From contig OX597815.1 of assembly GCA_951406725.2 (NCBI GenBank), positions 193,564,001 through 193,628,000 on the forward strand: 64,000 nt of DNA, written 5' to 3'. Positions within the stretch are counted from its first letter, which is position 1. Every line of letters starts with the position of its first letter. The notes under the pieces were generated by a model. That model worked only from the letters and a program-made list of their open reading frames with translations, made no database searches and was not told where the DNA came from. The position numbers and the translations under genes were made by a program. Below are positions 1 to 62,925 of the stretch, piece after piece. The DNA is from Octopus vulgaris. Taxonomy: Eukaryota.

Positions 1-1944
1 AAACTTTTTGAAACGGAAACTGCACTCAAACTTTCCTATGAGAAGGAGAGGGCAGAGAGAGAAGCCAGGGCCATAGAGAATATTAAAACAAACCCTAAAG
101 CTTTCTTTAAATTTGCGAAAGAAACCACCTCGGTACACTGCAAGATTGGCCCACTCTTTGATAAAAAGGGCTCTCTAACTGAGGACCCCCAAGGGATAAG
201 TGAAATACTAAAGGAACAGTATAAAAGTGTGTTCACATCCCCTCTGGGGCACATGCAAATCACAAACCCAGAAGTTTTCTTTGATGCCACAACACTCCAA
301 AACCAAACAACAACCATCGACCACATAGACATAACAGAGAGGGATGTAATATCTGCCATAGAAGAAATGAGAATAAACTCAGCTGCTGGACCAGATGGAT
401 TCCCAGCAGTCCTCCTAAAAACATGCAGGCATGCCCTAGCGGGACCACTGAAGATGCTCTTCAGTGGTTCCTTGGCTAACGGTAAACTGCCCAGGGCGCT
501 AAAAGAAGGCACCATATGCCCTATCCACAAAGGAGGGAGTAGAGCAGAGGCCAAAAACTACAGGCCAGTCTCCCTGACGTCACACATAAGTAAGGTCATG
601 GAACGAATCATCAGAAAAAAACTGATCACGTTCCTCGAAGAAACTAACCGTCTCACTGACACACAGCATGGCTTTCGCCCAGGAAGAAGCTGCCTTACGC
701 AGCTGTTACAACACTACGACTGGGTACTGAAACAACTACTGGATCGCTCACAGGTGGATGTGGTATATCTCGACTTTGCGAAGGCCTTTGACAAAGTCGA
801 CCACGGAGTGATATGTCACAAATTACTCAGACTCGGCATAACAGGAAAAGTAGGTGAGTGGATACATGACTTCCTGAAGGACAGAAGCCAGATGGTTGCA
901 GCCAATGGAGCCCTCTCGGGAAAGACACCAATAGCAAGCGGGGTGCCACAGGGCACAGTCTTGGGACCCTTGCTGTTTTTGGTGGCGCTCTCTGACATGC
1001 CCTTGGTAGCACAAACAACATCCCTCACTAGCTATGCTGATGACACAAAGGTAGCACAGGCAATCAAAAACCCAGCTGATGCTGACCTTTTACAACAAGA
1101 TCTGGATGCCATATACAAATGGGCTGAAGACAACAACATGCAATTTAATGCTGGTAAATTTCAAGCCTTACAATATCAAGCTGTAAACACATATACATTA
1201 CAACACAACTATACTGGTCCAGGAGGGATCGAAATCCCAGTATCGAAATCAATACGGGACCTGGGGATAGACATGAGTGACGATGCATCTTTTTCTTCAC
1301 ACATCGCGAAGGTGGCGACAATGTGCAGACGACTCACTGGCTGGATCCTGAGGACATTCCGGACAAGAGACTGCGAGACCATGTTGACACTATGGAGGAC
1401 ATTTGTCCTAAGCCGCCTGGACTACTGCTCCCAACTGTGGTCACCGCATAGTGTCAAACTAACCACAGAGCTTGAGACAATCCAAAGACATTTCACCAAG
1501 AGGATTTCCACCATGAAAGAAAAGAACTATTGGGAGAGGCTTAGGGAACTCAATTTGTACTCCTTGGAACGAAGACGAGAGAGATATGCAGTGATATACA
1601 TATGGAAAATCCTGGAGGGACTAGCACCAAATTTTGGAATTGAGAGCTGTTCCAATCCCCGTACAGGACGTCACTGTGTGGTGCCAAAGGTCCCGTCTTC
1701 CACATCCAGGGTAAGGAGCAGATACTGTAATAGCCTGGGGTTCAGGGGCCCTCAGCTGTTCAACAAACTGCCAAGAAAACTAAGAGATCTACATGATGCG
1801 GATGTGGACATTTTCAAAAAACATCTAGACAAGCTGCTTTCCGGGATCCCAGATGAACCCACTGCAAGGTACGAAGGTAACCTAAGGGCAGCAGCTACAA
1901 ACTCTCTCTTAGATCAGTGGCCAGCCACGGCAAACTGGACTTAG
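1..1944 (+). CDS. LINE ORF2, partial (RT + C-terminal domain), family A
   Basis: ORF track 229-1944; the same frame is open from base 1. RT motifs intact. Confidence 0.9.
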   Translation, partial: KLFETETALKLSYEKERAEREARAIENIKTNPKAFFKFAKETTSVHCKIGPLFDKKGSLTEDPQGISEILKEQYKSVFTSPLGHMQITNPEVFFDATTLQNQTTTIDHIDITERDVISAIEEMRINSAAGPDGFPAVLLKTCRHALAGPLKMLFSGSLANGKLPRALKEGTICPIHKGGSRAEAKNYRPVSLTSHISKVMERIIRKKLITFLEETNRLTDTQHGFRPGRSCLTQLLQHYDWVLKQLLDRSQVDVVYLDFAKAFDKVDHGVICHKLLRLGITGKVGEWIHDFLKDRSQMVAANGALSGKTPIASGVPQGTVLGPLLFLVALSDMPLVAQTTSLTSYADDTKVAQAIKNPADADLLQQDLDAIYKWAEDNNMQFNAGKFQALQYQAVNTYTLQHNYTGPGGIEIPVSKSIRDLGIDMSDDASFSSHIAKVATMCRRLTGWILRTFRTRDCETMLTLWRTFVLSRLDYCSQLWSPHSVKLTTELETIQRHFTKRISTMKEKNYWERLRELNLYSLERRRERYAVIYIWKILEGLAPNFGIESCSNPRTGRHCVVPKVPSSTSRVRSRYCNSLGFRGPQLFNKLPRKLRDLHDADVDIFKKHLDKLLSGIPDEPTARYEGNLRAAATNSLLDQWPATANWT

Positions 1945-2020
1945 AGAGGGTAGCAACAAGGGCGGTGCCCCAGCATGGCCTCAGCCGGATGGCTGAAACA
2001 AGTAAAAGAGTAAAAGAGTA
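1..2020 (+). mobile_element. CR1-superfamily LINE, family A, copy A1 (cut by window start)
   Basis: Frame open 1-1944 with RT motifs [35 protein letters not shown]. Short 3' UTR ends in a (TAAAAGAG)2 tail running into (TA)n. Nearly identical to 27314-29333. Confidence 0.95.
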
Positions 2021-2280
2021 ATATATATATATATATATATATATATATATATATATATATATATATATATATATATATATATATATATATATATATATAT
2101 ATATATATATATATATATATATATATATTATATATATATATATATATATATATATATATATTATATATATATATATATATATATATATATATATATATAT
2201 ATATATATATATATATATATATATATATATATATATATATATATATATATATATATATATATATATATATATATATATAT
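2021..2280. repeat. (TA)n tract between tail-to-tail LINEs A1 and B1
   Basis: Near-perfect TA dinucleotide run. Confidence 0.98.
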
Positions 2281-59300: not shown

Positions 59301-60004
59301 TCACCTTTCCAAGGTTAACGTCACTTCTACATTTATTATAGGTGTTATCATATATTCTATTTTTACTATTCTTATGTATATTGTTGATTATCCTAAATCT
59401 ATTTGTGTTGTTCCTGATAGTTCTACCTCCATTAGGGGTTCCCCTTAGGTATAAACCAAATCTTACTTTTATATCCTGCCTTAAGTAATGCTGCATTGTA
59501 TCTATCACAGTGTTTGTTAAAAATTTCCTCGTTTGAGGATAAACTAGAAATTCTCTGACTAATGCTACGCACTAGTGCATTTTTAATTTGAGGGGGGTGA
59601 TTACTAGAACGGTTAATGTATATTAGGTTAGAATTAGGTTTAATATAGGGTTCATGTAAACCATTAGTAATGTTACAATTAACATCTAAATAATTAGCAG
59701 AATAATTTTCACTTTCAATGATAATGGATAGGCCGAAGCTTTTAAAAAATTTGTTTATTCTTTTTTTCAGAAGATCTAATCTCCTATTTGATGTATTCCT
59801 AACACAAAATAAGGCGTCATCCCTGTATAATCCGCCTTTTAATTCAGGGAATTCCCTACTAAAGTTATCTAATAGATACATCCCAACTAGATCAGTCACC
59901 TCCGCTGAGTCCGGCGATCCCATTGTGATATCGAACAAGTTGGGTGTGTCCTTTCTAGCCCAAAGTTTATTATCAAACTCTATTAAAGTTTTCCTGGCTG
60001 TTAG

Positions 60005-61127
60005 TATATGTATATATATATATGTATATGTATATATATATATGTATATGTATATATATATGTATATATATATATATGTATATGTATATATATATATGTA
60101 TATATATATATATATATATATATATATATATATATATATATATATATATATATATATATATATATATATATATATATATATATATATATATATATATATA
60201 TATATATATATATATATATATATATATATATATATATATATATATATATATATATATATATATATATATATATATATATATATATATATATATATAATAT
60301 ATATATATATATATATATATATATATATATATATATATATATATATATATATATATATATATATATATATATATATATATATATATATATATATATATAT
60401 ATATATATATATATATATATATATATATATATATATATATATATATATATATATATATATATATGTATATATATATATATATATATATATATATATATAT
60501 ATATATATATATATATATATATATATATATATATATATATATATATATATATATATATATATATATATATATATATATATATATATATATATATATATAT
60601 ATATATATATATATATATATATATATATATATATATATATATATATATATATATATATATATATATATATATATATATATATATATATATATATATATAT
60701 ATATATATATATATATATATATATATATATATATATATATATATATATATATATATATATATATATATATATATTGTATATATATATATATATATATATA
60801 TATATATATATATATATATATATATATATATATATATATATATATATATATATATATATATATATATATATATATATATATATATATATATATATATATA
60901 TGTATATATATATATATATATATATATATATATATATATATATATGTATATATATATATATATATATATATATATATATATATATATATATGTATATATA
61001 TATATATATATGTATATATATATATATATATATATATATATATATATATATATATATATATGTATATATATATATATATATATATATATATATATATATA
61101 TATATATATATATATATATATATATAT
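60005..61127. repeat. (TA)n tract, about 1.1 kb
   Basis: Direct inspection. Confidence 0.98.
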
Positions 61128-62925
61128 GTTCAAAAGTGTATTCATACACCTCTAGGACATAGGCAAGTAAACAATAGAAGAATTCTTTGCCACTTTACCA
61201 GCGGCCAAAGAGACAAAAATTGAGTACATCAACATCGAAGAAGATGATATCACACTAGCCATTGATGAGATTGACACAAACTCAGCTGCTGGACCTGATG
61301 GATTCCCAGCGATCCTTCTCAAATCGTGCAAACGAGCCCTTGCAAAACCGCTACAGCTTCTTTTTCAGAGCTTTCTTGCAAGTGGTAAGCTCCCAGTCAA
61401 ACTGAAAGAGGGGCTAATATGCCCTATCCATAAGGGAGGTAGCAGAGCAGATGCTAAAAATTATAGGCCTATCTCTCTGACCTCACACATCAGCAAAGTC
61501 ATGGAACGAATAGTCCGTAAGAAACTAATCATGTTCCTTGAAGAAAATGACTTACTGTCTGACACCCAGCATGGATTTCGACCAGGTAGAGGCTGCCTAA
61601 CACAGCTCCTGCAACACTATGACTGGGTGTTGAAACAGCTACTAAATGGCTCAAATGTGGATGTAATATATCTTGACTTTGCAAAAGCCTTTGATAAAGT
61701 CGACCATGGTATGATCTGTCACAAACTGCGTGGTCTCGGCATAGGCGGGAAACTTGGAGAGTGGCTGCACAACTTCCTAAAAGACAGAAAACAGGCAGTT
61801 GTGAGCAATGGAGCCACCTCCAGGGAAACGCAAATAACAAGCGGTGTCCCACAGGGCACTGTCTTGGGGCCACTGATGTTCATAGTGGCCCTTTCAGACA
61901 TGCCTTCAGTTGCTACGATGACCACCCTTGCTAGCTATGCAGATGACACAAAGGTCTCCCACGCAATACAGAACCCTGAAAATATTGCGCATCTGCAACA
62001 TGAGCTGGACACAATATACAGGTGGGCTGAGGACAACAACATGCAGTTTAATGCAGGTAAGTTCCAGGCCCTGCGCTACTGGCACACAAAGGTAAATGAC
62101 GTGAAGACTGGATACACTGGCCCAGGAAGAATTGCAATCCCTGAGTCAAAATCAGTGCGTGACCTGGGCATTGACATGAGCAATGATGCATCTTTCCAAA
62201 TGCATATTGCTAATCTGGTGATAAAATGCAGACGGCTAGCTGGATGGATTCTCCGAACTTTCAGAACAAGAGAGAAGGAGACACTGATGGTCCTATGGAA
62301 AACATTTGTCCTCAGCCGCTTGGACTACTGCTCCCAACTTTGGTCACCACACAATATAAAACAAACAGCAGAACTCGAAGCAACTCAGAGAAGCTACACA
62401 AAGAAAATCGTCTCAATGCAAAATGTCAGCTACTGGGAAAGACTGAAGGTATTAAACCTCTTCTCCCTGGAGCGGAGGCGGGAGAGATATGCAGTAATAT
62501 ACATCTGGAAAATCCTGGAGGGTCTTGTCCCAAACTTTGGCATTCAAAGTTACTCCAACCGCAGAACGGGCGCCGCTGCGTGGTGCCAAGGATTCCAACA
62601 TCACCATCAAAATACAGGTCCAGATACTGCAACAGCTTGGGTTTCAGAGGACCACAGCTTTTCAACATCCTCCCTAAATGCCTGAGAGACTTACATGGTG
62701 TGGATGTGGGTTTCTTTAAAACTAAACTGGATCTCTTCTTGTTGGGAGTCCCAGATGAACCTACCTCACGACAGGAGACACGGATGCGGGCAGCAGCATC
62801 GAACTCCCTTGTTGATCAAGTGCCACGTATCAGAGGTGGATTCACAAACTAGTGTGGCTCATTCAGCGGTGGTGCCCCAGCATGGCCGCGGCCTTCGGGC
62901 TAAAACATTTTTAAGGATTTAAGGA
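61128..62925 (+). mobile_element. LINE family D, copy D3 (5'-truncated, frameshift near 62570)
   Basis: Nearly identical to 32332-34138; (TTTAAGGA)2 tail; TA on both sides. Confidence 0.95.

Follow-up and report, generated by a model that had tools for sequence, protein, structure and literature searches.

Two lineages of CR1 retrotransposons lie mostly within (TA)n arrays of the Octopus genome and share a predicted Myb/SANT-like ORF1 domain

Results

CR1 copies and (TA)n arrays in the window

The window, that is the whole 64-kb stretch of Octopus DNA analysed here, contains 14 copies of CR1-like LINEs (A x3, B x3, B' x1, C x4, D x3), 8 on the plus and 6 on the minus strand. Self-BLAST and inspection of the junctions recovered exactly the insertions, family counts and strands that a sequence-only reading of the same DNA had given. 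The copies are the following.

1..2020, plus: A copy, 3' part (RT, 3' UTR, (TAAAAGAG)n tail), extending leftward past the window to an N gap
2280..6913, minus: B copy, apparently full length, 4.6 kb, 5' start as in L191, tail (TATCAAAG)n
16827..19763, minus: C copy, 5' truncated, (AATC)n tail, ORF2 frame 16911-19739
20027..20488, minus: B copy, 462 bp
20883..20997, minus: B' copy, 115 bp
25624..29333, plus: A copy, truncated in ORF1
29518..30122, plus: D copy, 605 bp
31546..34146, plus: D copy, truncation point within the endonuclease, (TTTAAGGA)n tail
34610..36133, plus: C copy, 1524 bp
36424..37957, plus: C copy, 1534 bp, (AAAATC)-type tail
38301..39099, plus: C copy, 799 bp, the most divergent (84-88% to other C copies)
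40519..44497, minus: B copy, truncated in ORF1, ORF2 frame 40610-43741
45142..47497, minus: A copy, 2356 bp, 5' end in AT-rich stutter
61128..62925, plus: D copy, 1798 bp

The (TA)n arrays beside them lie as follows.

2021..2281: array separating A and B
15854..16826: array from the RTE tail to the C tail
19763-20028, 20489-20882, 20998-21039: arrays around C, B and B'
24142..25623: array of about 742 units, 5' of A
29332-29517, 30123-31545, 34146-34609, 36133-36423, 37958-38300, 39098-39444, 39816-40520: array chain
44498..45141: array separating B and A
60005-61127, 62925-64000: arrays flanking D on both sides

The chain (29332..40520) separates A, D, D, C, C, C and B in that order, and the longest arrays of the window reach about 1.4 kb. 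A junction was scored as TA when (TA)4 occurred within 20 nt or when at least 15 of 20 letters alternated between T and A. This rule was satisfied at 26 of the 27 visible junctions; the 27th, of the A copy ending at 47497, is the AT-rich stutter, as the sequence-only reading had described, and the 28th lies beyond the left edge of the window, at the N gap (L551). The 5' truncation points do vary among copies, as had been noticed. Within-family identity is 99.7-99.8% in A, 98.7-99.8% in B and 97.9-99.2% in D, so the claimed near identity is correct for these three; C copies, at 84-96%, depart from it. The naive chance of finding 14/14 copies at TA, nesting being ignored, is 7e-7. Because TA-like positions fill 36% of the non-element DNA, the window by itself is poor evidence for TA targeting. 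Two non-CR1 copies adjoin TA arrays as well, one RTE (13719-15853) and one Penelope-like (55489-60005).

Family identity and coding capacity

The protein-coding frames and 3' structures considered below are these.

2372..5503, minus: B ORF2 frame, 1043 aa stop to stop, APE endonuclease (PF14529, E 6e-14) and RT (PF00078, E 6e-30)
5377..6765, minus: B ORF1 frame, first Met at 6591, Myb/SANT-like domain followed by two CCCH-like fingers (by eye)
6373..6567, minus: Myb/SANT-like domain of B ORF1, candidate targeting domain (PF13837, E 2.5e-5, under the curated cut-off; Atlas lead 0.87)
25758-26315, plus: A frame with CCCH finger
26057-29257, plus: A ORF2 frame, 1066 aa, APE and RT
29274..29310, plus: two predicted 3' UTR hairpins of A (ViennaRNA, without shuffle control)

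ORF2 encodes an APE endonuclease and then an RT, with nothing further such as RNase H in Pfam searches (PF14529/PF03372, then PF00078). The families match Octopus CR1 clusters catalogued by Martelossi et al. 2023 (PMC10294476), namely O.sinensis_114 (A), 21 and 135 (C), 14 (D), and 46 and 59 (B): compared by eye, the cluster RT stretches of supplement file 23 match A, D and B, and C is the same or nearly so. Clusters 114, 14, 21, 135 and 46 are listed there as Jockey superfamily, CR1 clade, the type column reading CR1 rather than CR1-Zenon. We thus assign A, B, C and D to the CR1 clade through clusters tabulated as CR1 in a tree with named references, which bears out the CR1-like identity first proposed and places their RT in neither R1 nor Tx1; in the RT tree built here the sole named reference was a bird protein that we read as CR1, with RTE as the outgroup. 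The catalogue classifies RTs, and its available text does not mention target site, ORF1 or 3' structure. The 3' ends are family-specific tandem tail repeats of 4-10 nt without poly(A), and an equivalent of the first hairpin is predicted (ViennaRNA) in B, B', C and D, so that a predicted stem-loop followed by a short tandem repeat, the 3' end typical of the CR1 clade, is found. A sequence search of the PDB returned only L1, R2 and group II intron proteins.

Between A/C/D and B, the ORF2 proteins share 38% identity. On 26 rows, a set picked after inspection of a larger tree, A, B, C and D were rejected as one clade by an AU test (p-AU 2e-10). RT comparison therefore favours two lineages, A/C/D and B/B', rather than one. 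The young, target-specific lineage that the sequence-only reading had proposed is indeed young and strongly TA-directed, but it does not appear to be a single lineage. B' is an older sister family of B (69% DNA identity over 540 bp).

An ORF1 with a Myb/SANT-like N-terminus and a CCCH finger, overlooked in that reading, is common to A, B, C and D. The Pfam Myb matches fall under the cut-off and A has none, while Atlas scores for the domain are 0.81-0.90 and residues W5 and W17 are invariant in the three aligned rows. The D homologue was predicted from a three-sequence model to form three helices (7-20, 25-35, 42-71; block pLDDT 83-94 over residues 1-70), and the top PDB matches of this model in Foldseek were Myb, TEA and GT-1, with a best E of 0.15 and none at or below 0.001. 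The described ORF1 modules (PHD, RRM, CCHC, esterase) were not found, the Myb/SANT-like domain and CCCH finger standing in their place; since ORF1 is variable within CR1, an atypical one does not exclude the families from the clade. Pfam detected no Myb domain in ORF1 of the control family E described below or of three metagenome relatives, and none of the five metagenome relatives with downstream sequence had (TA)n directly downstream. The endonuclease motifs ETH, YRPP, GDFN and SDH are intact in A-D, and the PTR-x4-LDL loop region looks similar, by eye, in A-D, bird CR1 and E. The Myb/SANT-like domain, with predicted DNA binding, is a candidate targeting device; the link between ORF1 and targeting compares two lineages with one control family.

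TA preference across the genome

Genome-wide counts scored a plus-strand 3' anchor as TA when at most a 35-position gap separated it from (TA)4. By this measure (TA)4 follows the 3' end in 224 of the 295 plus-strand copies of A, 995 of the 1140 of B and 554 of the 877 of D, where the background is 6.1%; for C the basis is a sample, with TA at 19 (strict) or 21 (relaxed) of 30 copies. Insertion exclusively into TA, as the sequence-only reading had it, is thus true of the window and not of the genome, where 63-87% of copies qualify by the strict rule. Among sampled A-D copies, TA was present at 118/150 3' junctions and 89/127 5' junctions (background 5.2%), and the 5' association seen in the window therefore extends to the genome. 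The non-TA junctions numbered 32/150 at the 3' side and 38/127 at the 5' side; 14 of 26 sampled non-array 3' junctions still began with TA or AT. Copies of at least 250 bp had TA at 79/87 3' and 54/65 5' junctions, compared with 39/63 and 35/62 for shorter ones, so that long copies lie in arrays more often (p 3e-5). B' was at TA in 16/29. Near-full-length D copies had TA 5' ends in 10/17 and were kept out of the pooled counts, as were the best 30 A matches of one search, whose query ended inside the tail. For near-full-length A copies the 5' value (2/8) was discarded as unreliable, TA flanks having aligned to each other. The families use both strands about equally genome-wide, in keeping with the two orientations noted in the window.

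As a matched control we used family E, an equally young CR1 from this genome whose tail is (TTA)n, whose copies are 99.6-100% identical and whose lengths include 2-4.7 kb. E was at TA in 3/30 3' and 4/30 5' junctions, indistinguishable from background (p 0.20 and 0.07) and far from the A-D sample (Fisher p 1e-12 and 1e-8). It inserts at TA dinucleotides, yet without arrays at equal age, and because its tail also contains TA, tail pairing alone cannot account for the A-D bias. Most A-D copies are flanked by the repeat at both ends, well over background and this control, as expected of a microsatellite-targeting LINE. The preference of A-D for (TA)n is strong but leaky, and not an R1-style fixed site.

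Other elements share the arrays. A Penelope-like family, tried as a negative control, proved TA-bound (TA at one end in 19/19) and was dropped from that role; (TA)n is a preferred target of Penelope-like elements (PMC8557442), so the family serves as a positive control instead. RTE was likewise abandoned as a negative control, being itself enriched at TA: 17/27 young copies, and 1437/5033 by RTE-tail anchor, about one third of B's rate. Moreover, 26 of the first 30 anchor matches were short RTE-tailed elements whose 5' ends were unplaceable with the reference used. Older SINEs with an A-type tail were at TA in 6/24, and a DNA-transposon family (34 candidates, mostly old) was left unscored. TA adjacency in A-D therefore exceeds that of E but not that of every other element, the Penelope-like family being at least as TA-bound. 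TA arrays are a niche common to CR1 families, a Penelope-like element and, more weakly, RTE.

TA tracts before and after insertion

Of 26 occurrences of a host SINE that carries a TA tract internally, 23 are empty and 3 are filled inside the tract by B, C or D; two further filled cases were identified by eye. Empty paralogues were found for 5/100 sites, 3 of them outside arrays. These paralogous empty sites indicate that the TA tract can predate insertion, at few sites in one host SINE. At L041, L044, L067 and L076 there are candidate duplications, 13-22 nt long and broken by an interrupting letter. Tracts beside insertions have a median length of 68 nt, against a length-weighted background of 30 nt, a difference that growth after insertion would explain as well as a preference for long arrays. 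When short TA tracts between unique flanks were sought, 1/175 sites qualified, and its flanks proved to be repeats. One TA-to-element 5' junction is crossed by short-read contigs of two runs from two studies, although one of these runs possibly derives from the sample that was assembled. Runs at a 0.05 word share were left out. At L083, the X1 and X17 contigs end at the junction, compatible with an uninserted allele; the 3' side was skipped as repeat and the case was discounted.

Discussion

Two CR1 lineages sit mostly in (TA)n, and we think it probable that their own proteins seek the arrays, the Myb/SANT-like ORF1 domain being the leading candidate. That the targeting is encoded by the elements themselves seems to us likely; that ORF1 is its main determinant we hold tentatively, at somewhat below an even chance. 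ORF1 would tether the RNA-protein particle onto long TA arrays, and the APE endonuclease nick would fall at a TpA step. TA or AT within the tail repeat could then pair 2-3 bases with the nicked strand and prime reverse transcription. The inserted copy would split the array and leave TA on both sides, so that nests such as this window could accumulate.

The endonuclease alone might set the preference, as it does in R1 and Tx1 elements, by cutting alternating TpA steps far better than other DNA, the Myb-like domain having some other role, which we consider possible but rather unlikely. Two papers (PMC6007223, PMC13295347), in their available parts, name the specificity of the endonuclease as what chiefly decides where LINEs insert, and the 14/26 non-array 3' junctions starting with TA or AT agree with such a cutting bias. 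However, A/C/D and B (ORF2 38% identical) are separate RT lineages, so an endonuclease-set preference would have two origins; what they share is the unusual ORF1 domain. The PTR-x4-LDL loop region, moreover, is alike by eye in A-D, bird CR1 and E, and 0/5 metagenome relatives have downstream sequence starting with (TA)n. The same 14/26 junctions would also suit a short TA or TATA site, the arrays having grown later by slippage of the duplicated target or arisen during priming. Flanking tracts longer than background and the rarer array location of short copies, some perhaps older, point the same way. This seems quite unlikely given TA at 89/127 5' junctions, at unrelated truncation points, the tract already present in empty host-SINE copies, and E, of the same age, at TA dinucleotides without arrays.

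It is less probable still that the host is responsible, long (TA)n arrays breaking, being open or tolerating insertions and so collecting any active element. Enrichment of CR1, Penelope-like elements, RTE and some SINEs in arrays would follow, as would the excess of long copies there (p 3e-5) under selection against long insertions elsewhere; but E, equally young and with 2-4.7 kb copies, stays at background, and the RTE-tail rate is one third of B's. Finally, TA runs could have joined unrelated sequences during assembly, the window arrays being up to 1.4 kb long and some junctions ending at N gaps. We regard such an artefact as highly improbable: tails end at defined phases across hundreds of copies, insertions lie within an otherwise intact SINE, contigs of two independent runs (one possibly from the assembly's own sample) cross one junction, and the same assembly shows no such joining to TA for E.

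Returning to self-encoded targeting through ORF1, a more speculative and rather doubtful extension is that ORF1 acquired the Myb/SANT domain in octopods and moved it between two distantly related RT lineages, which opened the TA niche to both and made CR1, by a new route, a third APE-LINE clade to target microsatellites. ORF1 would then be a portable targeting module. The ORF1 protein is usually regarded as an RNA chaperone; were it the determinant, it would have a targeting role useful in steering insertions. For asking how a LINE selects its site, the genome offers a natural test pair: the targeting families, whose ORFs are intact, and a non-targeting CR1 of the same young age. Retroelement nests like the one in this window could likewise be put down to TA targeting, hotspots having been reported without mechanism (PMC13282606).

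Comparison with known systems

Among APE LINEs, Waldo, Kibi and Koshi, members of the R1 and Tx1 clades, are microsatellite-specific; the CR1 group is generally regarded as inserting almost anywhere. Mino is a further such LINE, specific for AC (PMC3124438). Like these R1 and Tx1 elements, A-D are APE-type and use target-primed reverse transcription into a simple repeat kept on both sides; unlike them, they belong to CR1, use a TA repeat that is the same on both strands, are leaky and carry a Myb-like ORF1 domain. Our literature search, with Repbase outside its scope, found no report of a microsatellite-targeted CR1. Among Penelope-like elements, which are present in Octopus, Naiad has (TA)n as its preferred target and a linker has been proposed for Neptune (PMC8557442). 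They resemble A-D in the (TA)n target and in duplications concealed in the repeat but differ from CR1 in their GIY-YIG endonuclease, telomerase-related RT and unrelated origin. Togen ((TG)n) and some HERO families (PMC4640811) are also non-LTR elements at microsatellites, with a restriction-like endonuclease instead of APE and other repeats. The Jockey superfamily ORF1 types I-V (PMC4120745) have the two-ORF layout of A-D, with ORF1 modules exchanged between lineages; Myb, SANT and CCCH are absent from the main text of that paper, and the A-D ORF1 would be type V, unclassified. In their available parts, papers of 2018 and 2026 name Tx1 and R1 as the sole site-specific APE clades (PMC6007223, PMC13295347), a list to which a measured, controlled CR1 preference would add.

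CR1-like insertions and (TA)n arrays in the window

Reading through the window bore out 14 CR1-like copies, eight on the plus and six on the minus strand, interleaved with (TA)n arrays. Their adjacency to TA was likewise confirmed, as 26 of the 27 visible junctions satisfied the TA rule ((TA)4 within 20 nt, or at least 15 of 20 letters alternating between T and A). The tail repeat differs from family to family among A-D, and ORF2 protein identity is 65-73% among A, C and D and 38-39% between B and these three. The near-identity of copies that the sequence-only reading had described within families did not hold for C, whose window copies are 84-96% alike and thus form several subfamilies. 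Since 36% of the window DNA outside elements is itself TA-like, targeting had to be tested genome-wide.

Genome-wide preference for (TA)n

Exact 3' anchors searched in the whole genome (2.8 Gb in 227 contigs) were found 573 times for A, 2255 for B, 4158 for C and 1742 for D, with both strands used about equally. On the plus strand, where each start is counted once, (TA)4 lay within a gap of 35 positions 3' of the anchor for 224/295 A, 995/1140 B and 554/877 D (C stood outside this count), and the background for the same rule was 6.1% of positions in 20 evenly spaced 10-kb stretches. Junctions were scored in 150 copies picked by position and blind to flanks: the first 30 listed of each of B, C and D, a further 40 of 100 listed B, and 20 of 100 listed A (contig 1, one cluster skipped). 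TA was present at 118 3' junctions, and the 5' adjacency expected by the sequence-only reading was recovered at 89 of 127 scorable junctions (the other 23 fell at a locus edge or N), compared to a background of 5.2% for this scoring. Copies of at least 250 bp showed TA at 79/87 3' and 54/65 5' junctions, shorter ones at 39/63 and 35/62; for B', the older sister family of B, 16 of 29 3' junctions were in TA. Insertion exclusively into (TA)n, as initially claimed, fails genome-wide, since 32 of the 150 sampled 3' junctions lack TA. A-D show a strong preference for TA at both junctions, with leakage.

Tail-only insertions of 38-83 bp are frequent (39/104 scorable copies in genome-wide samples L032-L118 and L271-L309). 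The first predicted 3' UTR hairpin marks a favoured truncation point in all four families: many of these insertions begin at its 5' base or close by. At L184:1-1500, two A copies lie tail to tail around a single TA tract, and the 5' end of one adjoins the tail of a reversed D-like element.

Contigs of two short-read runs from two studies (X2 and X4) span one TA-to-element junction starting from unique DNA, which speaks, for that junction, against assembly mis-joins as the source of the TA joins. Contigs of runs X1 and X17 end at the same junction.

Possible pre-existing TA targets

Twenty-six copies of a common SINE with an internal TA tract were found, 23 empty and 3 holding a short B, C or D inside the tract; two more filled tracts (L271, L290) were added by eye. 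At L045, the six TA letters preceding the insertion occur again after it. Searched systematically, 100 sites yielded five with an empty paralogue: two lie in the SINE TA tract, three outside arrays. Ten sites carry a candidate duplication marked by an interrupting letter; at four of these the duplication is 13-22 nt long and lies in TA. Array periodicity could mimic such patterns. SINE-like repeats are abundant (window 21878-24141 and 49981-52585; genome loci L045 and L164-L166). One SINE type in the genome loci, whose internal TA tract receives CR1 insertions, ends in the hairpins and the (TAAAAGAG)n tail of family A, which is likely its partner LINE.

Controls and other users of TA arrays

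Family E, an equally young CR1-type family found in a flank, is separate by RT and carries a (TTA)n tail. The best 30 of 799 candidate copies are 99.6-100% identical to one another, with TA at 3/30 3' junctions and 3/19 5' junctions, plus 1 of the other 11 by eye over longer flanks. These rates lie close to background and well short of those in A-D (p 1e-12 for 3', 1e-8 for 5'). The proposed comparison with RTE and Penelope gave a divided answer: the A, B and D rates exceed that of an RTE-tail anchor followed by TA (1437/5033 genome-wide; 7 of the first 30 copies), but a Penelope-like family had TA at 19/19 scorable ends (20 fetched; by eye) and at 6/11 opposite ends. This family is taken as Penelope-like from its motifs; a Pfam search gave no match. 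Young RTE copies had TA at 17/27 (27 of 29 had a 3' end) and older SINEs with an A-type tail at 6/24. TA arrays are a niche of several lineages, yet not of every active element, and their use by Penelope-like and RTE elements counts against a CR1-only story.

Other elements of the window:
13719-15853 (+), RTE-type copy encoding a PHD finger downstream of the RT; its (GAT)n tail adjoins a TA array, its 5' end lies outside TA
39445-39815, non-coding element of 370 bp flanked on both sides by TA arrays, starting ACTAG, resembling Helitron-type non-autonomous elements
48160-49804, Penelope-like element with a GIY-YIG-like frame by eye, beginning at a TA array, with inverted ends (48160-48289 matching 49675-49804)
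55489-60005 (-), Penelope-like element with a GIY-YIG-like frame by eye and a TA array at each end

Elsewhere, L052 (reverse strand, about 900-1450) holds what looks by eye like a Dong/R4 element, with long (TAA)n and (TAG)n runs at its end, and L148 (reverse strand, 1-1000) represents another CR1-type family, tailed by (TAAC)n.

RT phylogeny and ORF1

RT stretches of the families equal, by eye (for C, equal or nearly so), catalogued O. sinensis clusters tabulated as CR1 in PMC10294476, and Argonauta supplies the closest named ORF2 relatives. A tree of 65 RT rows (one row was too short and was dropped; E has a long branch) places A/C/D with one Argonauta protein and B separately with another. 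Both groups lie amid unnamed relatives, and a single 100/99 clade contains them while leaving out E and a bird sequence. A tree holding A/C/D and B together was rejected, and the single lineage first supposed gives way to two.

Near-full-length copies measure 4.6 kb for B and about 5.6 kb for D. In A-D alike, ORF1 opens with a related domain of three predicted helices and also has CCCH-like fingers; a Myb/SANT identity of the domain is weakly suggested by each of Pfam, Atlas and fold search. E ORF1 has a PHD-like cysteine pattern by eye and gave no PHD, Myb or CCCH match in Pfam; among three outside relatives, one ORF1 had PHD and weak CCCH matches and two had none. The ORF1 protein search returned four proteins, all Octopus (named Octopus vulgaris). 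Part of D ORF1 recurs at 96% identity in one of them, P0243, whose annotation reads adhesion G-protein coupled receptor isoform; an exonised LINE or an annotation error would account for this. Downstream sequence was available for five relatives, each a single contig, and in no case did it begin with (TA)n. In one, a metagenome relative of the A/B clade (L436:1593-1823), it runs into (TACA)n, which may be either a tail or another microsatellite target.

Discussion

Elements of this class insert by target-primed reverse transcription. Sampled A-D tails stop where TA or AT of the tail repeat meets the array, and 2-3 paired bases between the two could prime synthesis. E has the same chance of tail pairing yet shows no targeting, so that a further determinant is needed. 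We favour ORF1 as the candidate because it is the unusual feature common to two RT lineages with the same bias; the main rival is that the endonuclease sets the TA preference instead.

No report of a microsatellite-targeted CR1 or a Myb-type ORF1 was found in the literature searched, which included PMC10294476, PMC8557442, PMC6007223, PMC13295347, PMC4640811, PMC4120745, PMC8967140, PMC3124438 and PMC5786205. An earlier note may stand in sources beyond this search (Repbase, Dfam, subscription papers, bioRxiv supplements). PMC13282606 counts 13 recently active CR1 families and, in the sections available, names no target. Tempered by its leakiness, the shared niche, the already catalogued families and a determinant that is still a candidate, the (TA)n preference of two octopus CR1 lineages is real and lineage-specific, and it stands beside the (TA)n habit already described for Penelope-like elements in PMC8557442.
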